NCBI GenBank assembly: GCA_051294905.1
Contig: CM119373.1
Span: forward strand, 560,001 to 624,000
Direction of reading: 5' to 3'
Length of the DNA stretch: 64,000 nt
Source of the DNA: Botryllus schlosseri
Lineage: Eukaryota
Shown here: one piece after another, positions 27,222 through 62,128 of the stretch
Layout of the letters: every line of letters begins with the position of its first letter
Position numbering within the stretch: the stretch's first letter is position 1
Translations under genes and position numbers: made by a program
The notes under the pieces: generated by a model
Database searches by the model: none
The model's input: the letters and a program-made list of their open reading frames with translations, nothing else
Told to the model about the DNA's origin: nothing

Positions 27222-27540
27222 CCACTTGATTATGGAGAATTGGACATGCTCGTCGACTGTTGGAAGGCCGGCGGGATACTGTTACACACATCGGGTCCGG
27301 CATATTTAATGGAGCGATGATCTTTTCGGTTGATCATATGATATTTGGACGACGTGGACGCGCGTGTGTTGTACTTGTGCGCTTTTGATTCCAAGGTAAA
27401 AAAAAAAGTCATTGAAATATTCGGGGCCACGACCGCAGTGGAACTGATACATAAACTTGGCGATTTCTAGTTTCCGCATATTTTCTATGTTTAGGACACC
27501 GAGTCTCTTCAGCAGCGACTTGTTGGGTTCAGGTGCATTA
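27222..27540 (-). mobile_element. 3' fragment of a non-LTR retrotransposon (CR1/L2-group ORF2 C-terminus)
   Basis: Frameshifted translation LGVLNIENMRKLEIAKFMYQF...HKYNTR...RSIKYAGPDVCNSIP. Confidence 0.6.
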
Positions 27541-30500
27541 AATACCTACATTACACGAGGAACACTGAATGTAATTCGAGAGAGTATGAGTCAAAGAAGA
27601 GTAAAAAGAATGAATATGACGAAGCACAAAATTTAGGAAAATGCACTTGATCTCATAGGGAACAAGTGCATCTAATACCAATAAAATTTGACGTATAAGC
27701 GCAAAGAAAATGGTGGAAATGTAGTGTAGAGTATTCTGAACTTGAAGTTATTAATGTAGAATACGTGTACCAATAATAATTACCAGAAACAGACAAAAAT
27801 GACGATTGGAATAATTCGTCGGCCATTTTGATTGAATCGAAATGTGAACTCGACGCCGCATCTATAATCATCGAACTGCGGCAACATTTTTAAATCTGGC
27901 CCGATAGAATGAATATCCGTTAAAAGCCCGTTGACGTGCGAGGCAAATTCAGGAAGTTAGGGAGTCAAATTTCATAATGGTTGCCATATGGTAACAAAGA
28001 GATGCAGTAAAGTTAACCTAACGACTTACAGCCGAGTTTGGAACGTACCAAAGTAATCTGACCCGTCACCAATGTTACCTCAAATTTTTCACGAACCTAC
28101 GCGAAAACGCCAACCCACTGCGCAGGCCCTAGGACAGCTGCGCGCAACCGTTTTCCCATAGGGTAATAAACCGAACTTCTGGGGGACTTCGCCCGCCTGA
28201 CTCTCCTCAGGCTATACGCTTTTCACCGCCACTAATCAGCTATGTCTGGTCTTCGTTTAGCGGGCGTTCCGACTAAACGCGCGAAGCGCCTAAAATTTTC
28301 TATAATTCATGATCAAATCGGCCAATATCATCGGGAATTGCGTATATTGCTATCGATTTTAAGTCCTGTCTATGCTCACGTAATCACATTTATAGGCATA
28401 ATCCTGTCCATGCTCACGTAATCATGCTTATAGGTAAAATGACGCCCTTACATGATGCTATTTCGTGACCTCCTACCCGATATGCCAAAAGGTATTGAAA
28501 TATGGACACAAGTAACTTTGATTCCGCTGCGACGGTATGGTGACGTATTATGGATTAATATACAAGGCAGGCGTACATGCATGAGAACGCACTTGCAACC
28601 GAAACATGCGATCGATATAGGCATATCGCGGTAAAACATTGATGTGACGTCTTAATACCGGCAATGCACTCATCACTATCAAGACATACAGTCAGATATA
28701 ACGATACGAATATTCTAGTCTGATTGAAGCAAAAACAAGACCAGCGTATGACCTTATCGATAGAGGATACCCGTTCAAACGGATCGAATAAATTCACAAA
28801 TTTGTGCTGCTTAGAAGCTGATCTAATGCAGCGCCGTATAGTGGTGCATTTTTCGATCAACGTTGGCAAAAGAATGGACATCTTCAACAATATTGGTGCT
28901 TGTACTTGCATGTTCGGCATATCGTCCGACATCACCGTACGTGGTCAGAATTCACCCGATGGAAGTGATGACTTCGAAAATTCGCGGCATTTAACTGTAC
29001 AGTAAATCTTACAATATATTCAGGCTACGCGGAGAGGATTATTTATTAGTTTCCCGCAGTCAATTTCGAACTGGCCCATTGTTAGTTATGACTTTGAACC
29101 ATATTATTTCGCCATTTCCACTAAGGATTGCGCTATTGATATGATATCAGACAGTATCGGTGAACTGAATGTTAGGAAGCTTGCGTTGTACACAACAAAA
29201 TGGGCGGTCTATATCTACGTTACAGGGAATGAGTGCGAGTGTTAGATCAAGCCCGTAATACCTGTACGGCCCGGGCCGGACCAAATTGGCACTGCACCAG
29301 GTTCAGGCTGGCTTAAAAATGGATCACCGGTCAGACAACGGTCAATCTCACTGACCCCAAATTTAAATGAGAACAATCGTCGTCATTATTAAGGAAGTGC
29401 GAACCGTGGTTTGATTATCACGCTTAGATTGGGTGCGCGATCTTCGGGTTCTCTGTCGTATTGGAGGCGGGCTCCATTGCATGAATATCTGCTGATCTTC
29501 AGAAGTGCAGACGTACAAATTAGTATGATCAAAGCCGCATACTGCGAGTTATAAAGAGTTGTTTGTGTGCGAGGTGGGCTTTGAGATCTGATGTGCGGCA
29601 GCTTAGCTGATTTGTTGGTTGGGGACGCAACATGAGATAACGATGTTGCCTGCAATATGGTTGCTACATGACGAAACTCGCGCGAAACGGCTACTTCCTG
29701 ACCAGGGAACTCAAAGCCTATCGATCTAAGGCAACTAAGATAAAATAAACACACGCTCAGCTCATGCACCCAGCATAATTTTATAGAGAATAATTTTGCA
29801 TTTATTTAATCCTTCGAGGTAATCCGAAAGGAATGCACTCCTTACCCCAATAACCAGAAAATGTGGACTGTTAGGCGACACTCTTCGTCATGAAGAGAGG
29901 GATATTTTATAAATCTTGGCCGCATGCAAGTATTCTGATCTTAGCATTGCGACATTGTGTTTGACGTGGACCTTGTGCGCCGTTGGTGGAGAGGGCGAAT
30001 AATCTCAAATGAGATGATTTACGAATAAGCGCTCGGTTTAGTTATACCCTGAGAATAGCGTAAGGAAGGACCCAGTCGTGGATAAAAGATCCATGAGCTT
30101 GCTATGCCTCAATATAACATAAAAAGAACAATTGTTAAGACATGTGTTATCAATTTATGTGCCGCAATCGCGGTTGCGAAAAGCTCGGTTGAACTTTGTG
30201 TGTGCAAAATGAAACAACAGCGCCCGCCTGCGGCCTAACGGGATAGGTAAGCGGTAAGGGCCCTTTTGATAAAAAGAGAGGCTATATGTGATCTTCTAAG
30301 TCGGCGATTCGGCCAAAAATGGGCCAGCGAGGCGTAAGTCATACAAGGTATGAAATACTAGCGTGAATTGCCGCATACGGGATACTGTAATGTTGAACTA
30401 CAACGCGATTGTTGCCGGATCAAAATGGCGCCTGAAATTTTCATTCAAAATGGCGCTGCTAGGACCGAAACTGCGGACCCTCGAGTTGCGCGCGAGTCAT

Positions 30501-37700: not shown

Positions 37701-37803
37701 TAATTAGATAAGGTAATTTTTACCCGTATAGTAAAATGGAGCTCTATATCACCTGGCTAGAATCCTTGTATAGATTGTGTAATTAAATAATTGTGGTGCT
37801 AAA

Positions 37804-48501: not shown

Positions 48502-48640
48502 AGCATTTCGATTCGATAAAATTTATCAAGTGCAGGAATTACGATAGTTAAAAGACCCCCGTATTTATGATAACGAAGATTGTTTGAAATCATAAGAATT
48601 GCGAAATTTTAAATATAAAAATAGGTTTAAAAAACTGGAT

Positions 48641-49088
48641 ATCCGTACCTTGATGTTAGATCCTGGATAAGACGGACAGATTTTCCAAAATGATAAGGAT
48701 AGTATCCACAATAGATGGATGGAGATCCGTACCTTGATGTTAGATCCTGGATAAGACGGACAAATTTTCCAAAACGATTAGGGCAAATATAACAGATGGA
48801 TAGATATCCGTACCTTGATGTTAGATCCTGGATAAGACGGACAGATTTTCCAAAAGTTTAGGGCTACTAATATAATGTACATCCGTACCTTGATGTTAGA
48901 TCCTGGATAAGACGGACAGATTTTCCAAAACGATTAGGGCTAATATAATTAATGTACATCCGTACCTTGATATTAGATCCTGGATAAGACGGACAGATTT
49001 TCCAAAATGTTAAGGACAATATCCACAATGGATATAGATCGGTACCTCGGTGGTAGACCCTGGTGAAAGACCGACAGATATTCCAAAA
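48641..49088. repeat. Array 1: six copies of a 50-bp hairpin-forming repeat separated by 25-34-bp variable linkers
   Basis: ATCCGTACCTTGATGTTAGATCCTGGATAAGACGGACAGATTTTCCAAAA at 48641, 48725, 48806, 48881 and 48958 (0-1 mismatch), plus a diverged copy at 49038-49088. Confidence 0.95.
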
Positions 49089-50824
49089 CGTTTAGGGCAC
49101 TACCATAGCGATTTACAACGTGACTACGTTGTGAATTGCTATGGAACTACATAAGTTGAATAAAAATGAATATTATAACCGGAAATAATAGGCCTATAAC
49201 ATTAGGAATACCTCAGGCCAGTACTGCTAATATAAAGACCTTAGAAAAGTAACCCATGGTTGAATTTGTCCACACATTCGTTTTTCGAAACTGATGTGCC
49301 GATGATTGAGTATGACATTAGAATAAGACCCGCCTTGTATGCACATTCGTTTCACGAAATGGATGTGTCTGACAAGTGCACTTATGGCACCATGATCAGT
49401 ACGTGCATGCAAATTATTGTATTTTGGCAACGTTACGATAACAAATGACGCAGTATTCTGATATGTGTGTATTTAATGTCCTCCCTGTGCGCATTGAGTG
49501 TATCTACAACTTATATGACAAGAAGAGCGTCTCAAAAACATGCCAATGATTTAATGACCTGCTCTCAATAAGACCATAAGACTGAATGAAGTGATGAAAT
49601 GGCATGAGAGTATCGATATGAACTGGACATTCTGTTGGCATTAATGAACGGCTTGGCGGTACCAACTCTAAAATTACTATTCGACAGTCCCGCAAAACTG
49701 CTCCCCTCGATAGAATCTAGGGCTTAATGAAGTCAAATGAACGAGATGAGAAGAAATCCGGCACCATGAATCACTGCTCAGCAAGGACCAGCGAACCAAA
49801 GGTTGGAACGTGCCAAACAATGCCCGCAAGAAGTCGCGTTGAAGACAGCGGAGAAAAGAGGCGATCAAGACGGCTGCAAAATCAAGAAGAGATACGCAGA
49901 AGGATCGTTTCATCAGCAAGGGAGTTGAAGAAATCGGGTTCGAAATAGATGCACAAGACAAAGTACCCAAGCGTACAGTTGCCAAATACGTCCTTTACAT
50001 ACGATGATGGAGGTCGGAGAGGGTGCGTTTGGCGAACAACGACATGAATCTATCTGCGGCATGATGACGAGACGCGTGAGTCATAACAGGACATTGATAT
50101 TTTCACGTGATGGTTACTTTGATGTATTATTGTATAGTGACGCCATTTTGTTCAAGCGCGGCCTTTACTGTATCTTTGATCAATACCATCAGGTTGCTTT
50201 AAAATGGCGCTAACATTTTATGTCGTAGATATGTGTATGGGTTAGTGAACATTTAATATGTGAATAATTGGTTGTTACTACAGTAATATGATAGCGAATA
50301 CTATGCCTGTAGGCTTTACTTAGGCGTTATACACCGACCACGCCCTATGTTAGTGTCGGGACCCTTCACCCTAGCGGGATAGAAGCTTAGGATTAGAAAT
50401 GGTTAGGGATTTCTTCAGAAAACCCGTAAAAGGGACCCTGGGTATCTAACAGTGTTCGAATAAGCAACACCTTTGTTAAGGGTAGTATCATCAAGTGCAC
50501 TTTAATTGGCATATGGCCATGTTAATCGGGTCAACGATACAAAGTCCTTAATGTTGGAACCTCCCGGAGTTACGCGTTATAACTAGCTACGCACCCTTAG
50601 ACTAAGCTAGGAACCTCTACCTTATTGGAGCATGTGTAGAGTTAAAGATTCGTGGTAAATCAGATCTATTATTTGTGAGACACGGTACATACGAATGAAT
50701 AAAAAGCTTATATACACCGATACAAAGGAACCCAGAGATATAACAGATAGTGATTAAAACATTGGATCGTGCATGACTATTGTGATTGAATGGTGTGTCA
50801 TGTAGCGATATGTCATGAATGAAC

Positions 50825-51053
50825 TTTATGGCAGGAAAGGCCGACACATTCATTAGATGTGTAAACTAACCTCGGAGCTGCTTTACGGCAGGACAGGCCG
50901 TCACATGCATTATATGTGTAAACAAACCTATGAGCTATTTTACGGCAGGAAAGGCCGTCACATTATTTATATGTGTTAACAAACCCTGAAAGATACCACT
51001 TCGGCAGGAAAGGCCGTCGCATAGTTTATATGCGAAAACAAACCTTGGAGTAT
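50825..51053. repeat. Array 2: four ~57-60-bp units, each with two adjacent hairpins
   Basis: Consensus tttACGGCaggaaagGCCGT-CACAT(n7)ATGTG-taaacaaacc; units start at about 50825, 50882, 50939 and 50999. Confidence 0.9.
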
Positions 51054-51262: not shown

Positions 51263-51438
51263 GTCTGATACTGAAAGATACCACTACTGCAACTACTGCT
51301 GCTTCAATCAACACCCACGGACGTCGTCTGGACAATACAGCGCAATAGAAGGTCAACTCCTCACCGCGAAATAATCCGAACCAAGTGTGGACGACTCGCA
51401 TAACAATCGTTATCGGAGCTGCACTATAAAGACATTAT

Positions 51439-51456: not shown

Positions 51457-51485
51457 TATTCCGGTGAAAAAACGGTGACCTATTA

Positions 51486-51821
51486 ATGTGCGCGAAGACG
51501 ACCCTCGTGAGAATCGTGCTCGGAGTGACGGTAATCACTTCTGTTATATCTCTGCTAATAACGTTGGCGTCGGTCTACGTACACCTCGTGCCAGTATTCT
51601 TTCCCACGACAAACCCTGAAGGTCTCTCTAACGACGTCACTACAACGGCCGAAGCACTTGCTGTCCCACGTAACGGATTTGCTGTGGCAATCGCCAACGG
51701 AACCGAACCAGTTATCTTCGGAAGGTATTCCGTACCTACAACGCAAGGGCGAGTGATCGAAAACAACACAACCACGTCCGTGCGTAATCTGTTTCGAAAC
51801 GGTACTTCCCATAACCAATAA
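51486..51821 (+). CDS. ORF0: 111-aa predicted type II membrane glycoprotein
   Basis: N-terminal hydrophobic stretch IVLGVTVITSVISLLITLASVYV, then a Thr-rich tail with NGT, NNT, NTT and NGT sequons. Confidence 0.65.
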   Translation: MCAKTTLVRIVLGVTVITSVISLLITLASVYVHLVPVFFPTTNPEGLSNDVTTTAEALAVPRNGFAVAIANGTEPVIFGRYSVPTTQGRVIENNTTTSVRNLFRNGTSHNQ

Positions 51822-51874
51822 AAGGTACGGGACTAAGATTCAGACAATCAACCGTTACATAAAATTTGCGAAAA

Positions 51875-54739
51875 ATGCTAAAATTATTCAAAAAAAGGAA
51901 TAAGTCGTCGAAGGCGGCAGGCGAGCTCGAGCAGGGCATCAAGCTACTGAAAGCAACACAAAAACGCCACGAAGACGTCAGACAACAAGAAAGACAGATG
52001 GCAAAAGACGTGGCTGAACAAACGAAGGTACTAAAAGAAGTCAAATCAACACTGCCCGAGACAATGAAGGGGCTGGAAAAGGCCAAGAAAGAAGTCAGGC
52101 GAGCTCAAGCCGACCTCAAAGCAGTATGCGACGCGACTTCGAAGGTTAGCGGGAAAGTCTCCACTGAAGTCCTCAGTGAGATTCTGAAATCGGAATTTGA
52201 ACTGGGCAAAGCCCATGCCCAAGTGGTTGGAGATAAACCACCACCACCTTCTTCCCTGTCCGTAATGGCTACAACACCTCCCCCGGCGTATGATCCACCC
52301 GTTGGGAAATCGTCCAGGGCAACAGCGCCACTACCCACGTTTACAGTCCAAAAGGGCCTGGATTGCCATACCGTAACTACAGTCTACCCTACGTTGCCCG
52401 GTTCCAAGCCGAGGTCGCTATCAGATTCTCATCCAAAAACGACTCCATGTTTTCCGGTTTGGAATGGAACACGCCCCGAAAGACGAAGGGGGAACCCAGT
52501 CGATACACCCAGTCTATTTCAGCTGAGTAGAACCGGAACAGACACTGGACCAGATTCAGACGAGGACTATGCGCACGCTCGAGAACGGCTCGGAGCATGG
52601 CTCGACGATCAACGAGCAGCCGAAGGAACCCGGACCAGGACACAAGGTGCGGCCAGCACTCCAACAAGGCGCGTTACCTTTCAGGAAGGGAGAACGAACT
52701 ACCGACAAGGCGAAAGCGAAGAGCCCGAAGATTCGGGGGAAGATACTGACGCCCAATTGGACAGACTAGGCAGACAAATAGCGGAGGCACGGGAGGCCAT
52801 TCGGGAAACCACGCGGACGCTTCAGCGGGACTCTGGTCGGCCCAACCCAAGCGAACCCGCAGAGGATATGTCGGACATTGCTGAATACCTCAGATTACCT
52901 CGATACGCATCTACCCCAAGAGAAAGCGAAGGTAGATCGAGACTTCCGCGAGAACAACCGCCAAATGATGCCGTGAACCCGGTGTTGACTACGCCCGAAA
53001 GGTTCCAGTCGGAAAAGGAGATGCTGCAGCTAATGATGGACCCTGGGGATATGCCACTTCTAAAGTGGATGGCTAATACGATGAGACGTATACGACACGG
53101 TGAGGGCGGCACTGATACTGATATCATCCTGGCTAATGCCATGCAGAAGAAGTTGAGAAGTGCGGGTCGCCTCAAACAAGCTAATCAGCTAGGGAATTTC
53201 TTCAACACCAACTCGGGAAATGCAAAATGGGTCTCGGTCATGAAATCATTGTCGCTATCCAACCCGCAAGGCTTGGTAAACAATGAAAAGGTCATCAACG
53301 ATTTCCGAAGGAACTATCAGTGGGAAGACGAACCTCTTCCGCTGTTGAATAGCGCCCTAAAACAACTAGAGATAGATATGGAAGCTGAAATCAAAGAAAA
53401 TCCGGATGGGCTGCGACTCTTCCGCAACCTAAGGCAACGATTACCAGAAGCACTTAGGCTGCTGATGCGGGGATGGGATAGCAGGTCCTGGCAAGAGGTG
53501 GCGGAGGATTTACAGCTGTACTGGAATTCTGAGTTTTTGGATGAACAAGAGGTACGTCCCACCGCTCGAGAGACCAGAAAAACGCGTGAAACAATGTCAC
53601 CCCTACCACCTGTGCACATATATAATGTTCAGCCTACAGGACCCATGATGCACAGTTACCCTACTCACGGGGGTGGAAATGGACGAATAAACACCCCTTC
53701 CCCACCGACTACACCGTCACTTCCAATGGTGCAACCACCCTCACCCCAACAACCTCCGCACATGATCGGGGGGACACCACCCAGACCGTCGGGGAATATG
53801 TCGCCACAGCAGCCCGTCGGCGTCGGGCAAGCGTCGCAGCCACGACGTGGCCCTCCTCGCGGCGCAAAGACCAACCGTTTTCCTACCAATGTAATGAGTG
53901 GAAATAGGTTTGGCAGACAGGGCCCGGCTCCCAGGGCCAAATCTTCCCGAACACAAAATGGGCGCAACGCATCGAATGGACCCAACGTTCCACCAACACG
54001 GAACTCCAGATCTCCTCAAACAAGTCAGGGGCCAAGTACTTCGAACCGGAGACCTCGGATGGTGAATACGCAGGACTCTGGAATTGGCGGGGACAGCCAG
54101 GAAATCACGCCGGCTAGCAGTCAGGAAGCCCTCCGCATCGCGGAGAGCCAAGGTGAGAGGTATAATTTTCTTGGGAACCCCAACATTTTCGCCCCTCTAG
54201 GCTTGTATCTGAACCCCCCTCAGGGGCAGTCCTTATCCGTATGTTATTATTGTAAGGCCCCGGGACACCAATCCCGTAATTGCGTGGCAAAATTCGTGCT
54301 TTGGCTAAATGAGGAGGTGATTGCCAAGGATGATACTTTAGGTTGGGTAGTTCGCAAACGAATACGACCGGTACCTCCGCGCGTAAAGGAGTCCACAAAA
54401 CGCAACTGGGAGCCTTTCCTTGCAAGGAATAACATATTGACGGTCCCGGATCTCGACCGGTACCTTGCCACCCAAGGTTCTCCCTCTCTGACACAGAGAA
54501 CTGCCTTGTGCGAGGCCTATTATGACTCTAGGCCAAAAAACAGAGATAGAACCCACTGGCATGATAGGGACCAATGGGGTCCTCAGGGACCGGCTGTACA
54601 ACCGAACCAGGGCAATAGCCGAGTGGCCTGGACGGAACCGCTATATCGTCGTCCTCCACGTCGCTATGACGCCTCGCACTGGACGGATGAGGAACTTGAA
54701 CAAGGCTTGAGACTCTCAAAAAACGACTGGGGGTGCTGA
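51875..54739 (+). CDS. gag: Gag-like polyprotein (~954 aa from ATG)
   Basis: Basic N-terminus, coiled coil, PPxY late-domain-like PPPAY, helical capsid-like middle, Pro/Arg-rich linker and CCHC knuckle CYYCKAPGHQSRNC. Directly precedes pol. Confidence 0.85.
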   Translation: MLKLFKKRNKSSKAAGELEQGIKLLKATQKRHEDVRQQERQMAKDVAEQTKVLKEVKSTLPETMKGLEKAKKEVRRAQADLKAVCDATSKVSGKVSTEVLSEILKSEFELGKAHAQVVGDKPPPPSSLSVMATTPPPAYDPPVGKSSRATAPLPTFTVQKGLDCHTVTTVYPTLPGSKPRSLSDSHPKTTPCFPVWNGTRPERRRGNPVDTPSLFQLSRTGTDTGPDSDEDYAHARERLGAWLDDQRAAEGTRTRTQGAASTPTRRVTFQEGRTNYRQGESEEPEDSGEDTDAQLDRLGRQIAEAREAIRETTRTLQRDSGRPNPSEPAEDMSDIAEYLRLPRYASTPRESEGRSRLPREQPPNDAVNPVLTTPERFQSEKEMLQLMMDPGDMPLLKWMANTMRRIRHGEGGTDTDIILANAMQKKLRSAGRLKQANQLGNFFNTNSGNAKWVSVMKSLSLSNPQGLVNNEKVINDFRRNYQWEDEPLPLLNSALKQLEIDMEAEIKENPDGLRLFRNLRQRLPEALRLLMRGWDSRSWQEVAEDLQLYWNSEFLDEQEVRPTARETRKTRETMSPLPPVHIYNVQPTGPMMHSYPTHGGGNGRINTPSPPTTPSLPMVQPPSPQQPPHMIGGTPPRPSGNMSPQQPVGVGQASQPRRGPPRGAKTNRFPTNVMSGNRFGRQGPAPRAKSSRTQNGRNASNGPNVPPTRNSRSPQTSQGPSTSNRRPRMVNTQDSGIGGDSQEITPASSQEALRIAESQGERYNFLGNPNIFAPLGLYLNPPQGQSLSVCYYCKAPGHQSRNCVAKFVLWLNEEVIAKDDTLGWVVRKRIRPVPPRVKESTKRNWEPFLARNNILTVPDLDRYLATQGSPSLTQRTALCEAYYDSRPKNRDRTHWHDRDQWGPQGPAVQPNQGNSRVAWTEPLYRRPPRRYDASHWTDEELEQGLRLSKNDWGC

Positions 54740-54761
54740 TTGATCCGGTAAATCAGCTCCC
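54718..54761 (+). promoter_or_regulatory. -1 ribosomal frameshift signal (gag-pol)
   Basis: A_AAA_AAC at 54718-54724 in the gag frame, a 6-nt spacer, then stem GGGuGCUGAUU/AAUCAGCuCCC (54731-54761). Pol is in the -1 frame and open from 54711. Confidence 0.85.
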
Positions 54762-57700
54762 AGACAATTTGTTACCCCAACACGCAAAAACTGTACATAA
54801 TGCTTCTTTACCCCTATTTACATTTCTTGATACACCGGATAACCCACTACAGCCAGACTTTACGGAATTATTCGGCGGTCGGCTCTTGTATTTGGTTGAC
54901 ACCATAACGGGAACTAAATTCTTGGCCGACACGGGAAGCATCCCCAATTTAATAATGAAAAATGATGTAAAAACCATGTATCCCAAGAGCTGGGAGGAAC
55001 GGCAACCCTTAGATATGAAATCACGCGGTATAGGGGGCTCTTCCCACGTTGACTCCTTGGTAATTATTGAATTCGATGGACTACCGGTTCCATTTGCGAC
55101 CGGGAAAGGAGTCCCTCTCAATATTATTGGGTTGAAATGGATTGATCAGGTACAACAATTACCGAACATAGCGACTGAATTTAAAACTCCGTCTAATGCA
55201 AACGAAGAGTTGTCTTTAGTAACACTACATGACGAGATCTCGTGCGATCAACGGGATGGAACCAGAGTCGGAAACAGTCCTTGCAACGCTGCTACCGACG
55301 ATGGGTTGATGGAAGCTGCGAAACAGATAAGCGTCGAGTCGGCGCGCCGGTCATCATCGCCGGCCGTCGCCGCTGGCGCAAGTGTCGAGATGGCAATCGC
55401 CACTGGCGCGGACGACGGGTTGGTAAATACCACTAACGTCGAAAAAAACCTACGGGAAACCCCTAGTGTTGGGACAGGTAGCTCTGCTGGCACTAGGCAA
55501 GAGAGTGTCGGGTCAGGTCGCCCTGCTGGCACTAACCAAAGACGTGTCGAGACAGGAATCCCTGCTGGCACCATTAATGAAGACGTCGAGCGCGGAATCC
55601 CGGCTGACGTAAATAAGGACCTGCACGAGAAAACTGGTCCTGAAAGCTCACGTGGATGCACTTGTTCGAATAACTGTAACAATTCGGCCCAAAGATGCAT
55701 GACGACAGCCACAGTTATGAGTAATTTCCCAAAAGGTTCAAACGAAGCAGCTATTGTCGGTCAACCGGACGCATGTCCAGGCGCATCCGACAAGGAGTCT
55801 GGGGATTTTAAGATGCGCGTCTCCCCAGAAACAGGGCCCCCGGCGGAGAATGAGTCCGTCGGCGTGACGGTAGGTGTGGGCACGCACCGAGCTCAGAGGT
55901 CAGATTGGATAGGTAGGGAATCCCCGCTGACAACGAAGAACCTCGCCCTCTCTCCACCAACACCAAAACCCCGTTTATCACGTGATTCGCATCGGCCGAT
56001 AACTGGTCCTCTTACCACGTACACATTACAACAAGGCACCAGTCCCAGCGTTAAGACGGAACTCGAAAGTCTCTGTGCACAATCGGTAGCACTGGCAAAG
56101 CTTCCATACAAACCTCCTGATCTAACGACCCCGGAAAATACCATCATTGCCGACGAAGTTTGGAAAGCCGTCTATGAGCCTTTCGCAGCTGAACTAGAGG
56201 ACCTGCGTGGCCACTTACGAGCCCCTCAAGCCATGAAGTATAAGTGTGACATAGAACTCAGGGATCCCTCGACTAAGCCTTTTGTTTCTGGACCTTATAA
56301 TCTGAAAGGGGAGGGCCAGGCGAAGGCGTTAAAAGAAGCAGTGGACAACTTCTTGGACCTGGGAATAATTGAGCAAGGATTTGCCGAATGGAAACTGGCC
56401 ATCTTTGTCGTCCCACAAAAAATGAATGAAAGACAGAAGCAGGAGGACGGGTGGAAGCAATCATGGAGAGTCGTACAGAATCTCCAGCCCCTGAACGCTG
56501 CTATAAAGTCAATCGAAGTCCCTCCACCCTTAGTACCAGATGTAAAACAACTCGCCCAGGGAAGAGAAGTGCTCTCCCTGCTGGATTTGAAGAAAGCCTA
56601 TTTCCACATGGATATCACGGAAAGATCCAAGCAATATGTGGGGATAGCAATCAAAGGAATGCACGTAAGATGGCGCAAGATGGTGATGGGATTGAAGACC
56701 GCGGTTGCTCTTTGGAGCGCTAACATGCAAGAATGCGTGGTGAAGCCCATCACGGAAAGGTACCGTCAACACATGAAGCAAAATGGCCGATCGGATGAGG
56801 AGAATGCGACGCCTATGGAGGCCTACATAGACGACATTTTCCTTAGCACAAAAACGGTAGAGGACCATTTGCTTCTCCTACGACTGGTATTTGAACAACT
56901 TGCAAAAATGAAATTGACGCTCAGCATCAATAAATGCTTTATTGGAAAACGGAGAGTAAATCTGCTGGGAGCGACCCTGACGGGGAAAGAGATCGAGGTG
57001 CAGCCCGAGAGAATAAGGGCGCTGCGAGAGCTCTCACCACCCCGAAATATATATGAATTACGGGGATGGATCGGCGCTCTACGCTACATCTCGGAGCACA
57101 TCCCAGAGTTGAGCTTGAAGTTGGCAAAATTTGATGCACTAACGGGAAAAGTCCCAGCGACTCGAGGTAAAATGACACCGGTACTTTGGACCGAAGAATT
57201 AATGCAGGACTACAAGACAGCTCAAGCCGCACTCGACAGTACCAAGGTACTGTATCATCTGGATTCAGGACTTCCCATTTTCGTGGAAACTGATGCATCA
57301 GATGTAGGGTTTGGCTCCGTAATTTTTCAAACGGATGTGGGGGAAAAACCCCCTTTCAAGGAGGTGTATCCGGTCGCTTACTACAGTCAAAAGTGGGTAA
57401 CCCCGACGGCTAAAGCCTATGACCCATGCACCAAAGAGCTTAAAGCCCTGAAGGATTCAGTGGAGAAATGGCAGTCGATGCTGCGCGCCTTACCCTTCAC
57501 TATAATTACTGACAACATGGGAGTTTTTGGACTCCTGAAAAGAATGACAGATGAGGCAAAAAACCCGAGCCCAAAGCCATTGATTCAAAGGTGGCTAAAT
57601 CATCTCTCCGGATTCCAGATAAAAGAGGTAATCCATTTGAGCACGTTCCAAGTGTTTACTTCAGATGGATTGTCCCGATCCTATTGGATGGAAATGGCTG

Positions 57701-58266
57701 CTAGAGATGATGACCCTCATGTCTGGGCCACCCTCCCGGGACACAAAGAATCTCAACAAGAGAAAATACAGCGAACCCTGATGTTCCACTGTCGGCACGA
57801 GTATTGCGCAAACTCTGTCGATGGATACCACCCCTGGGAAGAAGTTCGCGGAATAATCAAAGACAAGCTGCGACAAGACCTCGGGATAACTGAAATCGAG
57901 GATATCATGGCCAATTGCGACAGGGCAGTGATGTCCAGTGAAGGCCTGGCTGCAGCGCACGGGCACACCAAAGGGATGCCACCTCCGTACGAAGAGTACC
58001 TGGGCGATGACATGCTGTATCACATAACGACGGATGAAGGTGCCCGTCAAATCATTGATACCCAACTACACAGAATGAACCGACGGTTCATCCATTTGAG
58101 TAAGATTAACACAACGAAAGCACGTGGGCGTAGAACGGTTCTGAGAATGAGGGCGAGCGACCTCAGAAGGATAGGTCTACGACTCTTACAGTCGCATAAT
58201 CACGAGGTAATACTGTGCGAAGGGCCAATACCGTCAGAGTATATACTGATGGAAAACCTGGCCTAG
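54733..58266 (+). CDS. pol: Pol: aspartic protease, long low-complexity linker, reverse transcriptase, RNase H and a C-terminal Tpt1/KptA-like domain; no integrase
   Basis: FLADTGS (PR); LLDLKKAYFH, MVMGLK and AYIDD (Ty3/Gypsy-like RT); VETDASDVGFG, KELKAL, IITDN and DGLSR (RNase H); CRH...HGHT...LYHIT...MNRRFIHLS...IPSEYI (Tpt1-like). Confidence 0.92.
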   Translation: MLIDPVNQLPDNLLPQHAKTVHNASLPLFTFLDTPDNPLQPDFTELFGGRLLYLVDTITGTKFLADTGSIPNLIMKNDVKTMYPKSWEERQPLDMKSRGIGGSSHVDSLVIIEFDGLPVPFATGKGVPLNIIGLKWIDQVQQLPNIATEFKTPSNANEELSLVTLHDEISCDQRDGTRVGNSPCNAATDDGLMEAAKQISVESARRSSSPAVAAGASVEMAIATGADDGLVNTTNVEKNLRETPSVGTGSSAGTRQESVGSGRPAGTNQRRVETGIPAGTINEDVERGIPADVNKDLHEKTGPESSRGCTCSNNCNNSAQRCMTTATVMSNFPKGSNEAAIVGQPDACPGASDKESGDFKMRVSPETGPPAENESVGVTVGVGTHRAQRSDWIGRESPLTTKNLALSPPTPKPRLSRDSHRPITGPLTTYTLQQGTSPSVKTELESLCAQSVALAKLPYKPPDLTTPENTIIADEVWKAVYEPFAAELEDLRGHLRAPQAMKYKCDIELRDPSTKPFVSGPYNLKGEGQAKALKEAVDNFLDLGIIEQGFAEWKLAIFVVPQKMNERQKQEDGWKQSWRVVQNLQPLNAAIKSIEVPPPLVPDVKQLAQGREVLSLLDLKKAYFHMDITERSKQYVGIAIKGMHVRWRKMVMGLKTAVALWSANMQECVVKPITERYRQHMKQNGRSDEENATPMEAYIDDIFLSTKTVEDHLLLLRLVFEQLAKMKLTLSINKCFIGKRRVNLLGATLTGKEIEVQPERIRALRELSPPRNIYELRGWIGALRYISEHIPELSLKLAKFDALTGKVPATRGKMTPVLWTEELMQDYKTAQAALDSTKVLYHLDSGLPIFVETDASDVGFGSVIFQTDVGEKPPFKEVYPVAYYSQKWVTPTAKAYDPCTKELKALKDSVEKWQSMLRALPFTIITDNMGVFGLLKRMTDEAKNPSPKPLIQRWLNHLSGFQIKEVIHLSTFQVFTSDGLSRSYWMEMAARDDDPHVWATLPGHKESQQEKIQRTLMFHCRHEYCANSVDGYHPWEEVRGIIKDKLRQDLGITEIEDIMANCDRAVMSSEGLAAAHGHTKGMPPPYEEYLGDDMLYHITTDEGARQIIDTQLHRMNRRFIHLSKINTTKARGRRTVLRMRASDLRRIGLRLLQSHNHEVILCEGPIPSEYILMENLA

Positions 58267-58353
58267 GATGCGGGGTGACGCAGCCGTCGAGATTTAACTG
58301 CTGGGAAGTGGTCGATCGTTAAAGGAACTTGTACTTTTTTATTTACTTTTCAG

Positions 58354-59315
58354 ACTCCTTCGTCGAGGATTACAATGTGCTGCGATTGGTGGAAATGGGG
58401 GCCTTACCCCATACACGCGATTGCATCCCTTTTTTAAGAAGCCGGGGTCTACTGAGAAAACAAATGATATGCAGAAAATGCTCAAGATGGATGAAGGAAG
58501 AACGGACTACCGAGAGAATTTCGGACGGATGGAGATGGAGGTGCTCTCCTTGTAAAACCACTGCTACTATCCGCAAGTACTCGTTTTTTTCAAAAAGCAA
58601 ACTTGGGTTACCCCAGCTGCTAGTATTAAGTTATTTTTGGGCCCAAGACTCTCTACAAATTCAAATGGCCCATGAGGCCGAGATCAGCGCACGTACGACG
58701 GTAGAATGGTCTGGACAACTGCGCAAGATATGCTCTGCTTACATACAAAGACGTAAACGGAAATTAGGCGGGGTTGGCCGAACTGTAATCCTGGACGAAA
58801 CTCACTTGGCCAAACGGAAGCGGGCAGCTGGTAGCGGCCAACAAGCAGTGAAGGCTGTCTGGGCTTTCGGTGGCCTGGACCGAGGTACCGGTGACATGTT
58901 TGTGGAGATCACATCTGACCGAACAGCGGACGTTCTGAAAAGACTTATAATTAAGAATGTAGCCAGAGGTTCGACCATTCTGACAGATGGCTATCCATCG
59001 TATAAGGGCATTGAAAGTTGGGGGCAGGGCTATAAACATGGATCAGTTGACCACGCCACCACGTTCAAATCTGCCCAAGGCGTTCATACCAATGATTTGG
59101 AGGCATGTTGGGGCTCGCTGAAATATCATTTACACAGGTCGAGGGGTTTAGCACGCCATTTACTAGCCGATTACGTGGGGGAGTGGCTTTGGAAGAGAAG
59201 ATACCCCCGTAAAAAAAGGTTTGGGGCTCTGTTGAGAACGATATCGCTTGACCCACGGTATTGCAATGACGACCCTAGTGATCAGATCCCTGACGCACAA
59301 GGTGATTCTCATTAA
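58354..59315 (+). CDS. IS1595/ISXO2-family (Merlin-type) DDE transposase, probably expressed from a spliced RNA (first in-frame ATG 58395)
   Basis: Zn ribbon CRKC...WRCSPC, RKYSFFSKSKL, catalytic ILDET / ILTDGYPSY / HTNDLEACW, H..VDH and Y..EWLWK. Preceded by the acceptor tttttttatttacttttcag ending at 58353. Confidence 0.9.
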
Positions 59316-59431
59316 AGCCCAGAGAAGCCTTTAGCAACAAAGAAAGGAAGTTAACAACAGACCGGACAATGTATGTTTCTATTTTTTTGCAGACAATAAT
59401 TAAATCATATTCAATATAAGATAATAAGCTT

Positions 59432-59572
59432 ATGCATTGGGGACCGACGCCTATACCGTCTCAATGGACTACGCTATTTATATTCTGCCTGTCGTTATTG
59501 GTTTCAGTTGCACACCTGATTGCTTGTTGTCTGAGGCGGCGGGCTTCGTGCCGAGATCCGGAGATACTGTAG
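59432..59572 (+). CDS. 46-aa single-pass membrane peptide overlapping the env start (not in ORF track)
   Basis: First ATG after the acceptor at 59392: MHWGPTPIPSQWTTLFIFCLSLLVSVAHLIACCLRRRASCRDPEIL*. Confidence 0.4.
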   Translation: MHWGPTPIPSQWTTLFIFCLSLLVSVAHLIACCLRRRASCRDPEIL

Positions 59573-62046
59573 CAAGCAGGGCCCGAACCTTTACTCAGGG
59601 TACACTGGGTGAATTCAACGGCTCACTACCTGACGACTGGGTTCGGCTAAATGATACGCAATGGGAAACCTACGACCTGATGAGTGCTTTCAATAAGACA
59701 GGGAAACGTCATGTGTACAGGCGACCAACACTGTTTCATAGTGAATCTTTTGGTTACGTGGTGGCCGAACGGGTGTCATTGCAGCAAATGGCGTTCCCAC
59801 AAGGGCGATATTGGTCGAATGTACGGGACTTTGAACGGACCTGCTTATGCCAACGAAAACTAGGCCAAATTTCGCCAAACCTAACCTTTACCGTTCTTGA
59901 CCAGGAAACTGTGTTCGTACGCCCAATAGGACATGGGGTCAGGATACGGTGGTTTTGGGACGAGACCTGGGAAACGTCTAGGCAGAAATGGAGGGCTGGG
60001 GCTGAAGTGGACGAGTGGTCCCATGTGAACGATACCTTAATGGCAATGACCAAATTCAAGTTGATCATGTTACGAGCCTTCGCGGGGTTCTCAGCGGTGA
60101 GATCGACTTGTAGGACAGAGCGCATGACAAAAGATACATGGAACTGGACTCAGGTTGATCGATGGAATAAATATAACGCCAGTAGCTCGAGCATTGCGCA
60201 TTGTTGGCCGAGTAACGTGCTTTGGGCCGGAACATATTCAATAACCTACGACTGGAAGACTCGCACGGCAGACAAACGCCTGGTGTCGTCAACGCCAGAT
60301 TCACGCGGCACCTGTGTTTTTTGTGATATCACAGGGATAATTTCTGCTTTAGAACCGAGCCAAGCAGACATAATAATACAAGAAATAGATACCATTCGTG
60401 CGGAATCCGCATGGGAACGTAAGTGGCATCCTATGCAAAACTGCCGAGCTACGTCAGGACTGATCACCCAGGAAAACTATGAACACCTTTGGCAGGTCGT
60501 CCATCACTCACCAACCTTATCCGGTAAGGGCCTACGCAACATCGTGCATCCTCCATCATGTAATTTTTGGCCGACGCAGAACAAGAGTAAGTGGGGGGAC
60601 TTGCCCACCTCGAATTTTCCTCGAAGGATTAGATGGATACAGGCGTCCTTATCGAACTGGAAGGGTCAAGATGACCAAGGGCTTGGTTGGGATAACTTGT
60701 TCGACGGACCTGCCGAAAAACCAGCCGCACCCAACGACATACTGCCTATTTGGCGAAAGCACCCCTCTTTGGTTGCGGATGATCCTAGGTGTCAGGAACG
60801 GATAAGTGGTAGCGACTGTCAAGATCCGGTCGGGGGCCCTCAGTTGAAGGCGGCCTTTTGGGATCAGGTGCACTTCGACCCTGAGCGTAACCGACCCCGT
60901 TTTCCGGGAGGTCCTATAGAAATAAAAGGAGACATCGCACATAATAATAGGAGGATTGGGGGGAAACGTAGACGTAAACGATTCCTCTTCGGCCTACTGG
61001 CACTAATCTTTGCCGTCGTGTCAGTTGTCGCTGTTGTCGCAACTGTATCTTCCCAACTGCATAAAGAAACTGAGGACCTGAGTCATCAAATCAACGACAG
61101 AATGATCCAGGCTACGGAGAGATCAACCGAACTAGGGAAAAAGATAAACGAACTCTCCCAAATCCAAACAGCGCAACAACAAAAGCTGGACCGATTGGTT
61201 GAAAACATGGAGGTAAGAGCATCACTGACGGACAGACGATTGGTGTGGATGCAGAAAATGGTGGAGAAAAACCGACAAATGATATTGCGGCAGGCTACCA
61301 TCACCCTCGCTCAGTTTCAAAGTTTCACAGAGGTGAGCGACGCTGAACTTGCCGTCGACCGCTTGGTCATGAAAGAATTAGCTAATTTGACCGGAAAGTC
61401 CATATTCGATTCGAGTAAGGTCTATCTTACACAGATTCGGAAAGGGACATTGCAGGTGCGGGAGCATGCTCAGCAGTTATCCGCCTATAAAGATACGTAT
61501 GTAAATGAGACAAACGACATCAGTAGTAAACTCCGAGCCAACAGGCTTCGTCTGAACCAGGCTCAAGAAGAAGTGGATCTCAGTATACAGGTATGGAAGG
61601 AAGACCTGAACCGGAGTGTGTTCGTAAATATCTCCGACTGGCGCTACGAGAATGTGTCAGTAGCCCCCTTCGAGTTTGCTGGGGGGGAAGAATTTATGAA
61701 GAACTTTGGCAAAACGATAGAAGAGATGGCGAACGGTGCCGGAAGTCTGATAGAATCGGTCGGAAACGGTGCCGGTAACCTCCTACAAAAGGGACTTGGA
61801 GCAATCGGAGGTCTGTTTGGAAGTGGACTGAGTGGCATTTTTTCGGGCCTCGGATCCATCCTCCTCCCCTTGGGACTTGTACTGGGTGCGGTGATTATCT
61901 TATTCTGTTGTGTCAGGTATCACAGCCTATGCTGTCCCAAGTTAAAATCTAGCGTACAAAGGCGGAACACTAACGCCCAACTTGCAATGTATATAACGTC
62001 GACACCATCTTACACCGTAAAGCCCAGGCCCATAGTGCGACGGTAA
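59464..62046 (+). CDS. env: Envelope fusion glycoprotein (class-I-like)
   Basis: Signal-like N-terminus MDYAIYILPVVIGFSC, many N-glycosylation sequons, furin site KRRRKR (60964-60981), fusion peptide FLFGLLALIFAVVSVVAVV, heptad repeats, Gly-rich pre-TM region, TM ILLPLGLVLGAVIILF and a Cys-Cys tail. Confidence 0.88.
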   Translation: MDYAIYILPVVIGFSCTPDCLLSEAAGFVPRSGDTVASRARTFTQGTLGEFNGSLPDDWVRLNDTQWETYDLMSAFNKTGKRHVYRRPTLFHSESFGYVVAERVSLQQMAFPQGRYWSNVRDFERTCLCQRKLGQISPNLTFTVLDQETVFVRPIGHGVRIRWFWDETWETSRQKWRAGAEVDEWSHVNDTLMAMTKFKLIMLRAFAGFSAVRSTCRTERMTKDTWNWTQVDRWNKYNASSSSIAHCWPSNVLWAGTYSITYDWKTRTADKRLVSSTPDSRGTCVFCDITGIISALEPSQADIIIQEIDTIRAESAWERKWHPMQNCRATSGLITQENYEHLWQVVHHSPTLSGKGLRNIVHPPSCNFWPTQNKSKWGDLPTSNFPRRIRWIQASLSNWKGQDDQGLGWDNLFDGPAEKPAAPNDILPIWRKHPSLVADDPRCQERISGSDCQDPVGGPQLKAAFWDQVHFDPERNRPRFPGGPIEIKGDIAHNNRRIGGKRRRKRFLFGLLALIFAVVSVVAVVATVSSQLHKETEDLSHQINDRMIQATERSTELGKKINELSQIQTAQQQKLDRLVENMEVRASLTDRRLVWMQKMVEKNRQMILRQATITLAQFQSFTEVSDAELAVDRLVMKELANLTGKSIFDSSKVYLTQIRKGTLQVREHAQQLSAYKDTYVNETNDISSKLRANRLRLNQAQEEVDLSIQVWKEDLNRSVFVNISDWRYENVSVAPFEFAGGEEFMKNFGKTIEEMANGAGSLIESVGNGAGNLLQKGLGAIGGLFGSGLSGIFSGLGSILLPLGLVLGAVIILFCCVRYHSLCCPKLKSSVQRRNTNAQLAMYITSTPSYTVKPRPIVRR

Positions 62047-62128
62047 CCAATCTCCGACGAAGCTCTCTTAACCCTCATGCTTAACTAAACACAACTATAT
62101 GAATTACAGATTTTCACGTTAAACTAAT

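Follow-up and report, generated by a model that had tools for sequence, protein, structure and literature searches.

The C-terminal end of the Pol polyprotein encoded in the window, by which we mean the entire 64,000-nt stretch of Botryllus schlosseri DNA analysed here, is almost certainly a real and complete domain of the Tpt1/KptA family, fused directly behind reverse transcriptase (RT) and RNase H. The domain lies at positions 57763..58266 on the forward strand, where it takes up the final 167 codons of pol and the stop codon, its RNA lobe being N-terminal and its NAD+ lobe C-terminal. An earlier note on this DNA had proposed a Tpt1/KptA-like domain here from a series of motifs, namely KIQRTLMFHCRH, DGYHPWEEV, DR, AAHGHT, LYHITT, LHRMNRRFIHLS, and SHNHEVILCEGPIPSEYI, all of which were present in the translation of 57763-58266, and the proposal was borne out by profile searches and structure prediction alike. 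Specifically, the Pfam model PF01885 (PTS_2-RNA), with a curated cut-off of 26 bits, matched residues 4-153 of the domain piece at 27.9 bits (E 2.9e-6), covering profile positions 8-176 of 177. A phmmer search of PDB chains with the single domain placed Tpt1 entries on top (best E 8.5e-4), and when a profile of 16 copies was compared with the PDB, all 11 matches were RNA 2'-phosphotransferases (best E 1.4e-14). Additionally, the AlphaFold (AF2) model of the domain had a mean pLDDT of 84.5, and the best 22 rows that Foldseek returned for it were all Tpt1/KptA at TM 0.76-0.79, headed by the KptA chain 9lda_A (E 3.5e-10, TM 0.76/0.78 over 181 columns). The predicted fold has two lobes, a winged-helix RNA lobe and an ADP-ribosyltransferase-like NAD+ lobe, corresponding to the Tpt1 lobes defined in PMC6333775, which describes the N-lobe as an RNA-binding fold of the winged-helix type.

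The residues on which Tpt1 chemistry depends could be located individually. In the alignment of the 16-copy profile, R29, H30, R72, and R125 of the 185-aa domain piece fell on R16, H17, R64, and R119 of RslTpt1 (chain 7kw8), all four of which are reported as essential in that enzyme (PMC6097658). On the forward strand of the window, the Arg-His pair of the tetrad is encoded at 57793..57798 (Pol 1032-1033, in FHCRHE), the third residue, an Arg, at 57922..57924 (Pol 1075, in NCDRAV), and the fourth, also Arg, at 58081..58083 (Pol 1128, in RMNRRFIHLS). The earlier note had suggested that candidates for a tetrad of Arg-His-Arg-Arg were present, and they proved to be CRH on R16-H17, DR on R64 of the RslTpt1 KKRF (K.RF) motif, and MNRR on R119. 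Among the 16 aligned copies, the first Arg was retained in 15, and the His and the third and fourth Arg in all 16; the tetrad was also seen by eye in eight Pol relatives from other assemblies. R64 has a distinct part in RslTpt1: the requirement for it is selective for step 2, in which the phosphate is actually removed, and its loss slows that step ~210-fold but step 1 only threefold (PMC6097658). In the NAD+ lobe, H105 and T107 were invariant across the 16 copies and aligned to LFHGT of 7kw8, as the equivalents of RslTpt1 H99 and T101, two residues chosen for alanine scanning in PMC6333775.

The broader parallel that had been drawn with the canonical Tpt1 motifs stood in part: the motifs were present and the tetrad aligned, but where the canonical RA.QGHS motif has its Arg, which is not a tetrad residue, all 16 copies had Ala. 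A pairwise alignment of a single copy had given the impression that the third catalytic Arg was replaced by Ala; this was discarded, the tetrad Arg being that of K.RF and not that of RA.QGHS. In the same 7kw8 alignment of the Pol-Tpt1 profile, the region of RslTpt1 R137/H138 appeared as an insertion. The 16 copies also had Cys and His residues of their own, with no counterpart in canonical Tpt1, of which C33 and H41 were invariant and H27 nearly so. We infer that the domain is probably a catalytically active NAD+-dependent phosphotransferase.

The domain proved widespread. Tpt1-domain matches numbered 140 in this genome, 52 of which lay in Pol open frames 1000 aa or longer, and PF01885 scored above its cut-off in 17 of 20 divergent related Pol frames, reaching 44.6 bits. 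The tetrad and the NAD+-lobe His and Thr were invariant or nearly so in lineages down to 29% identity, and both lobes were retained at full length, as judged from the alignment of the profile to the PDB and from Foldseek. For the 11 of 16 pairs with unsaturated dS, dN/dS of the domain was 0.10-0.29. Across this large and diverse element family, the domain is kept by purifying selection in each lineage. Moreover, all eight close Pol relatives in other assemblies, which were found with the RT-RNase H region as query, had the Tpt1 domain (five by precomputed Pfam annotation and three by our own profile), so that the conservation in sister elements raised in the earlier note extends beyond this genome. 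With Pol residues 1000-1188 as the query, a search for homologous proteins had accepted none of 331 candidates. The domain decayed in deletion derivatives that had lost RT-RNase H: in L024 the first Arg was changed to Gly, and L027 and L032 fell below the PF01885 cut-off. In a quick tree, the retroelement-type Tpt1 domains formed one clade (SH-aLRT 93), the tree being drawn from a quick search only, with the host's own Tpt1 excluded by the length filter. The canonical Tpt1 genes of the host form an expanded set at C3:19.31-19.43 Mb with canonical motifs, and scored 156-180 bits, in contrast to 28-50 bits for the Pol-Tpt1 domains.

The pol open frame encodes 1188 aa (54700..58266, forward strand, as are the other genes of the element) in the order protease-RT-RNase H, with the Tpt1 domain directly after RNase H. 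The protease was recognised by its aspartic protease motif only (LADTGS, 54925-54942), RT at about 56443-56979 (RVT_1, E 1.5e-16), and RNase H at about 57187-57615 (RT_RNaseH_2, E 4.9e-18). The Pfam RVP protease was found in the L033 lineage only. Pol is without an integrase domain: rve (PF00665) was detected in none of the five window frames and none of 28 frames of related loci, and it is not listed for the eight close relatives. Upstream, a gag-like open frame of 958 aa (51863..54739) has a CCHC zinc knuckle, for which zf-CCHC gave E 5.2e-4 and 20.4 bits, just under its cut-off of 20.8. The two frames overlap by 40 nt, pol being in the -1 frame, and the overlap contains the slippery heptamer A_AAA_AAC (54718..54724). 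By analogy with the well-established frameshift sites of retroviruses, this heptamer would drive a -1 frameshift, through which the Tpt1 domain would be made as part of Gag-Pol.

Further genes flank this pair. A small open frame upstream of gag (51468..51821) has a hydrophobic segment and no Pfam family; it is kept in the L017 lineage (L036:2947-3429), and the two have a similar N-terminal peptide. It is preceded by a conserved non-coding block (51373..51430, forward strand) ending in CTGCACTATAAA and 86% identical to the L017-lineage sequence at nt 26-82 downstream of the AAGG point. On the other side, env-like glycoprotein 1 (59428..62046, 872 aa) has a C-terminal hydrophobic anchor and no Pfam family; as a weak lead, its language-model features resembled those of class I viral fusion proteins (score 0.90). 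Env-like glycoprotein 2, a distant paralogue of the first (BLASTP E 2e-6), begins at 62123, continues through 64000, and runs past the window to L009:1272, for a total of ~1049 aa that include a membrane anchor and a region rich in Ser and Thr.

Between pol and the first env-like gene is a transposase gene of the IS1595/Merlin DDE type (58323..59315, 330 aa), directly after pol and with an N-terminal CxxC...CxxC arrangement. It matched PF12762 (DDE_Tnp_IS1595) with E 8.9e-13 and 48.9 bits, and the L025 copy did so with E 6.8e-15. The genome had 121 matches to this transposase, and a same-strand match was located within 60 kb of 48 of the 52 long Pol-Tpt1 frames. Every Pol-Tpt1 lineage had IS1595-like DDE transposase genes, and in some there were two paralogous ones.

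The ends of the carrier element accord with the transposase. The whole mobile element spans 38,232 bp on the forward strand, from 27526 through 64000 and on to L009:1757, equal to window position 65757, and other copies are homologous to it from window 27545-27551 up to 65757/65758. Its termini are imperfect 21-bp inverted repeats that are GG-terminal (GGTTCA... / ...GTTCC); the 5' repeat, GGTTCAGGTGCATTAAATACC, is at 27526..27546, and the GGTTCA terminus was also present in two other copies. An 8-bp target-site duplication, ACTTGTTG, occupies 27518..27525, its second copy lying just outside the window at L009:1758-1765. Perfect 8-bp duplications flanked all three copies for which both ends were recovered, the other two being those on C3 (GAAAATTT) and C12 (CAAAGTTC); two more copies were recovered at the 3' end only, and for the C13 copy (L017 lineage), a pattern search aimed at its 5' junction gave 12 matches, none of them on the C13 contig. 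Merlin-type inverted repeats and 8-bp duplications bound the window's lineage of Pol-Tpt1 elements. Whether the inserted molecule is excised DNA or cDNA, the sequence fits both.

Several other candidate boundaries were rejected. An alternative 5' inverted repeat at 27659 was a chance-level match, and apparent short A-rich tails past the 3' end were merely target flanks. Simple 7.36-kb elements with only gag and pol and with precise 5' ends were an artefact of one rearranged copy: the sequence upstream of the supposed 5' end was common to 11 of 12 copies, the leader continued for at least 2.9 kb, and transposase genes were situated 13-39 kb upstream.

The first 24 kb of the element is ORF-poor, and between 27656 and 51818 there are 44 open frames that reach 75 aa or more, none with a Pfam family. 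The leader upstream of gag contains five 81-nt tandem repeats (48636..49033, forward strand) and a second array of four 57-nt repeat units (50824-51053), and the leader of the L017 lineage has a comparable repeat array. Long terminal repeats (LTRs) were found neither in the window element, where there was no long direct repeat common to both sides, nor in the L017 lineage, in which each copy had the 3' terminal 290 nt a single time (16 matches) and nothing near any 3' end matched the 2.9-kb leader. This Pol is not that of an LTR retrotransposon: LTRs and rve are absent, and inverted repeats, 8-bp duplications, and a separate IS1595-like transposase are present instead.

For the role of the domain, we tentatively prefer the NAD+-dependent removal of a 2'-phosphate from the template or primer RNA of the element, a reading to which we give a little less than an even chance. 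The Tpt1 domain is delivered in cis, in the same open frame as RT-RNase H, and because of this tethering its probable place of action is the replication complex, with the nucleic acid used by RT as substrate. It would perform the canonical two-step Tpt1 reaction, step 1 being ADP-ribosylation of the 2'-phosphate, and would take the 2'-phosphate off the element's RNA or its primer, where a cleaved 3' end may bear it, or a junction formed by RNA ligation or repair. With it gone, RT would have a clean 2'-OH/3'-OH substrate to copy or extend.

We looked for a source of such a 2'-phosphate and found none in the window or the loci scanned. At gathering score, no Rfam family, including no self-cleaving ribozyme, was detected in the window or 14 loci, and relaxing E to 1 in L036 and L017 added a chance tmRNA match only. 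ARAGORN identified no tRNA-like gene in 13 loci, and among the element's open frames Pfam recognised no candidate partner (RNA ligase, 2H phosphoesterase, kinase, macro, or Nudix domain). The fungal-type tRNA ligase domains PF09511 and PF08302 had no matches in the host genome, in a search for which the controls were blank too. One of five 3' ends folded better than its shuffles (L017, z -3.65), and the conserved 72-nt leader block at window 50322-50394 had no fold better than shuffles. Four sequencing runs with sparse cover yielded 10 partial reads, in one raw RNA run, and no junctions of 3' end to 5' end, a cover too thin to weigh for or against such junctions.

The same observations can be set beside a second reading, rather unlikely but credible, in which the domain would carry out step 1 only and place ADP-ribose on 5'-monophosphate ends of RNA or cDNA, as TRPT1/KptA does in vitro. 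Such ends would come from RNase H cuts and primer removal, and the cap would block exonucleases, or host ligases that circularise linear cDNA before insertion by the DDE transposase. RNase H activity surely yields 5'-phosphate ends, so that the substrate is certain to be at hand for a domain placed directly behind RNase H, and no 2'-phosphate source emerged from the Rfam, ARAGORN, and Pfam scans. The element also needs intact ends, because insertion goes through defined inverted repeats. Mammalian and bacterial enzymes of the Tpt1 family are reported to ADP-ribosylate 5' ends (PMC12678800, PMC10415124), and these TRPT1/Tpt1 enzymes also keep the tetrad, so that conservation of the tetrad cannot separate 2'-phosphate removal from 5' capping. 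However, the counterpart of RslTpt1 R64 is invariant in all 16 copies, which is more readily expected if selection maintains both steps of the reaction than if it maintains capping only, and the element encodes no de-capping enzyme (macro, NADAR).

It is distinctly unlikely, in our judgement, that the domain is directed at the host or serves in counter-defence, whether by mending or modifying host RNAs such as nuclease-cut tRNAs, consuming NAD+, or ADP-ribosylating host nucleic acids. In PMC9503650, KptA carried by phages and large viruses is taken to serve in tRNA repair following attack by the host, and the expanded host Tpt1 set hints that 2'-phosphate or ADP-ribose RNA chemistry matters in this organism. 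Yet viral KptA repair works with a ligase and a 2H enzyme according to the same source, neither of which was seen in the element; fusion to the Pol C-terminus would put the domain in the particle and not free in the cell, and the host already owns Tpt1 enzymes.

Still less probable is a non-catalytic domain surviving as an RNA-binding winged helix or a structural part of Pol, for example holding a tRNA primer. The winged-helix RNA-binding fold of the Tpt1 N-lobe (PMC6333775), the clade's own invariant Cys and His (C33 and H41, with H27 nearly so), and the loss of the RA.QGHS Arg would suit such a part, but not the near or full invariance of the four tetrad residues and the NAD+-lobe His and Thr down to 29% identity, the full-length retention of both lobes, or the decay of the domain where RT-RNase H is lost (L024, L027, L032). 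That the domain is an artefact, whether an open frame arising by chance or read-through of a host Tpt1 exon confined to this copy, might have been suspected from a window copy only 1.9 bits above the Pfam cut-off, but is refuted by the 140 genomic matches (52 in open frames 1000 aa or longer), relatives scoring up to 44.6 bits, the PDB matches of the 16-copy profile, the Foldseek matches, dN/dS well under 1, and host Tpt1 genes that are clearly different (156-180 bits, canonical motifs).

Returning to 2'-phosphate removal from the RNA or primer of the element, this role can be joined to the architecture of the carrier in a wider reading that we consider unlikely as a whole. Pol-Tpt1 would mark an undescribed class of giant (~38 kb and more) hybrids of retrovirus and DNA transposon, in which an IS1595/Merlin transposase and inverted repeats would have replaced integrase and LTRs, and Tpt1 would be an obligatory replication enzyme that clears the 2'-phosphate resulting from cutting and rejoining of the very long genomic RNA or of its primer, as at a ligation junction that closes a circle. 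Across such a junction, RT could copy both ends with no need of LTRs.

We found no literature linking Tpt1/KptA/PF01885 to retroelements, none linking IS1595/Merlin to reverse transcriptase elements, and none on integrase-less Ortervirales of animals; Tpt1 is unmentioned in PMC12440569 and PMC13524379. The chemistry of Tpt1 is well understood, and according to PMC6333775 it has no known physiological substrate outside fungal and plant tRNA splicing. Here, a selfish replicon keeps Tpt1 fused to RT across deep divergence, providing a concrete setting in which a 2'-phosphate or 5'-phosphate of nucleic acid must matter and bearing on the substrate of animal-type Tpt1. Known alternatives to LTRs and integrase are tyrosine recombinases (DIRS) and target-primed insertion; from its sequence, the carrier element appears to take a third route that dispenses with LTRs and retroviral integrase, using Merlin-type ends and transposase. 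The puzzle is how a 38-kb unit with defined inverted repeats is reproduced through RNA, if at all, and Tpt1 may be part of the answer.

Among known systems, cellular Tpt1/KptA/TRPT1 enzymes have in common with the Pol domain the fold, the tetrad, the GH(S/T), (L/V)(Y/F)H.T, and (V/I)H(L/F)(S/T) motifs, and a length of ~170-180 aa. Unlike these free-standing enzymes, Pol-Tpt1 forms the C-terminus of a protease-RT-RNase H polyprotein; it is only ~20% identical to solved Tpt1 enzymes, has Ala in place of the RA.QGHS Arg, and has clade-specific invariant Cys and His. Positive-strand RNA viruses of invertebrates likewise have a Tpt1-family domain in a replicase polyprotein, a likeness drawn from description: KptA is reported inside the polyproteins of Beihai picorna-like virus as well as of Botrylloides leachii nidovirus, where it is read as RNA processing or repair (PMC9503650). 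The same source reports KptA in jumbo phages, sawfly nucleopolyhedroviruses, and Bodo saltans virus, with no reverse-transcribing element named among the carriers; those carriers are RNA or DNA viruses, whereas the carrier of Pol-Tpt1 is reverse-transcribing.

With Ty3/Gypsy elements (Metaviridae), the Pol-Tpt1 elements share the Gag zinc knuckle, the -1 frameshift, and the protease-RT-RNase H order. Gypsy-type Pols are the nearest relatives after the elements' own clade, at ~22-26% identity, and there is a wide gap in score between the two, with E 1e-103 or better within the clade and 1e-23 or worse beyond it. Ty3/Gypsy elements have integrase and LTRs, whereas the Pol-Tpt1 elements are without both and have Tpt1 in the place of integrase. 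With Merlin/IS1595 transposons they share the DDE_Tnp_IS1595 transposase and its N-terminal Cys-rich segment. The reported hallmarks of that group are terminal 5'-GG inverted repeats and 8- or 9-bp target-site duplications (PMC8101967), and the window element has the 5'-GG, imperfect repeats of ~21 bp, and 8-bp duplications. In contrast to the few kb of Merlin/IS1595 transposons, it extends over 38 kb and adds gag, pol-Tpt1, and two env-like genes. Finally, Teratorn is a giant virus-transposon hybrid that combines piggyBac with a herpesvirus, and it likewise has the integration system of a DNA transposon carrying a virus-like gene set; the Pol-Tpt1 element, by contrast, has an RT-based, retrovirus-like viral part and an IS1595/Merlin-type transposase.

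The open frame of the polymerase (Pol, 54700-58266, + strand) is a single frame of 1188 aa that ends in the Tpt1 domain, and the in-frame translation of window positions 57763-58266 on the + strand comprises 167 residues and a stop. Pfam placed RVT_1 at Pol residues 582-760, RT_RNaseH_2 and RT_RNaseH at 830-972, and the RNA 2′-phosphotransferase family Tpt1/KptA (PF01885) at 1020-1173; an aspartic-protease motif, LADTGS, was read near the Pol N-terminus, with no protease call by the Pfam scan in this copy. Searched alone, the last 167 residues matched PF01885 at 27.9 bits (E 2.9e-6, cut-off 26 bits), covering profile positions 8-176 of 177. A profile of 16 of the 28 copies, with nine near-duplicates and three degenerate copies left out of the alignment, matched 11 PDB sequences at E ≤0.01, all of them RNA 2′-phosphotransferases (best E 1.4e-14). 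When the AlphaFold2 model of the domain built on this alignment (mean pLDDT 84.5) was compared with the PDB by Foldseek, the 22 best matches were all Tpt1/KptA proteins; both lobes aligned with substrate-bound forms, at TM scores of 0.74-0.79. The 16-copy profile, run on 1.84 billion representative proteins, gave 1539 matches at E ≤0.001, mostly of about 180 aa, the size of free-standing Tpt1. The earlier note had recognized a Tpt1/KptA-like domain at the Pol end from motifs, every one of which is present in the translation, and its assignment is borne out by both the Pfam and the structure-prediction checks.

The essential residues reported for Runella slithyformis Tpt1 (RslTpt1) are Arg16, His17, Arg64, and Arg119 (PMC6097658), and their equivalents in the profile alignment were R29, H30, R72, and R125 of the C-terminal 185-aa piece (Pol 1032, 1033, 1075, and 1128). 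H30, R72, and R125 were invariant across the 16 aligned copies, while R29 was kept in 15, the exception being a deletion derivative, L024. Positions matching His99 and Thr101, residues of the RslTpt1 NAD+ lobe (PMC6333775), were invariant in these copies too. The previously proposed Arg-His-Arg-Arg candidates thus stand, as does the parallel with the other Tpt1 motifs, except that the RA.QGHS arginine is alanine in 16/16 copies. The loss of one catalytic arginine to alanine, as read from a first pairwise alignment, was wrong: Arg64 is within the KKRF motif, not IRANQGHS (chain 7kw8 numbering). The clade also had Cys/His positions of its own, with C33 and H41 invariant and H27 nearly so. Over the last 185 codons, dN/dS (Nei-Gojobori) was 0.10-0.29 for 11 of the 16 pairs, those with unsaturated synonymous distance, values that are rough in that three of the eleven pairs have dS >1.8. 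The tail of Gag-Pol, beside RNase H, is therefore a real, complete, and selected Tpt1 domain, and appears, as far as sequence can tell, to carry what an active Tpt1 needs.

The 495-Mb Botryllus genome contained 140 matches to the domain at E ≤0.001, down to ~31% identity, of which 52 lay in open frames ≥1000 aa long. Among 20 divergent loci, the match-bearing frame had PF01885 listed in 19 cases (up to 44.6 bits), 17 of them over the cut-off, confirming conservation in sister elements; the three loci that fell short (L027, L031, and L032) are internally deleted, decaying derivatives. These three and L024 (contigs C2, C1, C9, and C15, respectively) have frames of 853-907 aa that have lost RT-RNase H and kept a decaying Tpt1, with the first tetrad Arg replaced by Gly in L024 and, for the other three, Pfam scores that are missing or under the cut-off. 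Additionally, the domain occurred by itself in 162-aa open frames at several sites (G000:C3:18168227, C7:23759023, C13:15715620, and C5:17542652).

In a search of 5.8 billion proteins, the RT-RNase H part of Pol had 45 matches at E ≤0.001. The first eight, from other assemblies, had E-values of 1.5e-163 to 6.9e-103 and 41-53% identity; PF01885 was precomputed in five, the remaining three had the Tpt1 domain by our own profile, with tetrad motifs readable in the sequence, and rve integrase was listed in none of the eight. From the ninth onward (E 9.8e-24 or worse), matches were mostly Gypsy-type Pols with PF00665. One Pol relative, a predicted protein of another assembly (P0005, 967 aa), had an AP-endonuclease-like Exo_endo_phos segment (PF03372) after Tpt1, either through genuine fusion or because the gene model runs into a neighbouring gene. 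A quick maximum-likelihood tree built from 145 domains placed every one of the 26 labelled retroelement-type rows in a single clade (SH-aLRT 93), joined there by three short fragments of this type that had no label. The Tpt1 genes belonging to the host were canonical (LLRH, DRFEI, IRATQGHS; 156-180 bits) and clearly unlike the Pol domain. Outside the window, they formed an expanded cluster at G000:C3:19313502-19429401, plus C14:5157418-5158249, with two apparently whole copies (179.9 and 156.1 bits) and at least 10 partial matches in 120 kb, and a further one on C14.

The carrier element comprises 38,232 bp on the + strand, from window position 27526 to position 1757 of L009, the locus continuing the window beyond 64000; comparison with other copies gave this 3′ end and a homology onset at 27545-27551. 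Its termini, 5′-GGTTCAGGTGCATTAAATACC and GGTATATAGTGCACTAGTTCC-3′, match as inverted repeats at 15 of 21 positions (by-eye count), and the 8 bp ACTTGTTG are present on both sides. Two more copies with both ends shared these termini and were each flanked by a perfect 8-bp duplication of their own, GAAAATTT and CAAAGTTC (3/3 in all), and in a further two the 3′ end alone was found. That other lineages were short gag-pol-only elements was ruled out, the sequence upstream of the supposed 5′ end being common to 11 of 12 copies; the misreading arose because one copy was rearranged. In one copy on C13 (L036:385-2943), an env2-like frame directly adjoins the gag leader, and two other copies have this junction sequence 20-21 kb farther upstream, pointing to the loss of 20 kb between 9-nt repeats (AAGGAAAAC). 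Other repeat families lie beside the element in window 1-27500, where 20000-23354 and 25696-26662 each have many genome-wide copies at 88-92% identity.

Within the element, gag (51863-54739, +), an open frame with a CCHC knuckle, overlaps pol, in the -1 frame, by 40 nt, and an A_AAA_AAC heptamer was read ahead of pol in the overlap (54718-54724, +). An IS1595-type DDE transposase (58323-59315, +; PF12762, E 8.9e-13) lies 3′ of pol, followed by open frames for env-like glycoprotein 1 (59428-62046, +) and its distant paralogue, env-like glycoprotein 2 (62123 to L009:1272, +). Pfam detected rve integrase in 0/5 window frames and 0/28 frames of relatives, and no LTRs were found in the element or the related copies compared. 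The 5′ 24 kb had no recognizable gene, none of its 44 frames ≥75 aa long having a Pfam family; this ORF-poor part included two small paralogous frames of 225 and 170 aa (37783-38460 and 39555-40067), likewise with no Pfam family. A 72-nt leader block (50322-50394) had 92-95% identity between lineages and flanks of merely 72-84%; it had no predicted fold better than shuffles and may be a promoter or binding site.

The IS1595-type transposase of the element had 121 matches in the genome, and 48 of the 52 long Pol-Tpt1 frames had one on the same strand ≤60 kb away. Each lineage had a characteristic spacing: +0.6 to +1.0 kb for the window lineage, roughly -23 to -25 kb for the L016 lineage, and roughly -14 and -37 to -39 kb for the L020 group, whose units had two paralogous IS1595-like genes upstream of the Tpt1 domain, ~43% and ~63% identical to that of the window (e.g., C2:29160798 and C2:29179062). 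All lineages shared a ...GTTCC 3′ terminus, shortly after pol or after env. Because of this co-occurrence, the lineage-typical distances, and the common ends, the association of Pol-Tpt1 with the transposase and such ends, read at both termini in three copies, appears old and systematic. Insertion of the element is best explained by the DDE transposase. Copying of the 38-kb unit by way of an RNA intermediate, if it occurs, would require both inverted repeats to be regenerated without LTRs.

From its sequence and position, we infer that the Tpt1 domain is catalytically active and operates as part of the replication complex. Our preferred, still tentative, reading is that it would perform the canonical reaction, taking a 2′-phosphate off template or primer RNA, since the arginine selectively needed for the second step, Arg64 in RslTpt1 (PMC6097658), is invariant. 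Counting against this reading, no 2′-phosphate source was found: neither a ribozyme nor a tRNA-like end, nor a partner ligase or phosphoesterase, nor any junction reads, several of these blanks being uninformative. ADP-ribose capping of 5′-phosphates, the main rival, is less probable and on balance doubtful; such phosphates inevitably arise from RNase H cleavage and primer removal, and capping could protect putative linear cDNA ends needed by the transposase. A host-directed role, such as the counter-defence function once suggested, seems improbable, and a non-catalytic role for a domain with a conserved tetrad more improbable still.

Our literature search found no paper that connects Tpt1/KptA to reverse-transcribing elements, or retrovirus-like gene sets to transposases of the IS1595/Merlin type. 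A review of viral NAD+/ADP-ribose systems describes KptA as absent or rare in eukaryotic viruses, lists no retroelement, and reports KptA recruitment into polyproteins of large invertebrate RNA replicons (PMC9503650). The hallmarks described for Merlin/IS1595 transposons are terminal GG, inverted repeats of such size, and 8- or 9-bp duplications (PMC8101967), and the window element resembles them in its 8-bp target duplications and in its imperfect inverted repeats with terminal GG. What is new is the arrangement: the enzyme family is familiar but its architecture is not, and the mobile-element modules that carry it, each of a known kind, occur in a new combination.
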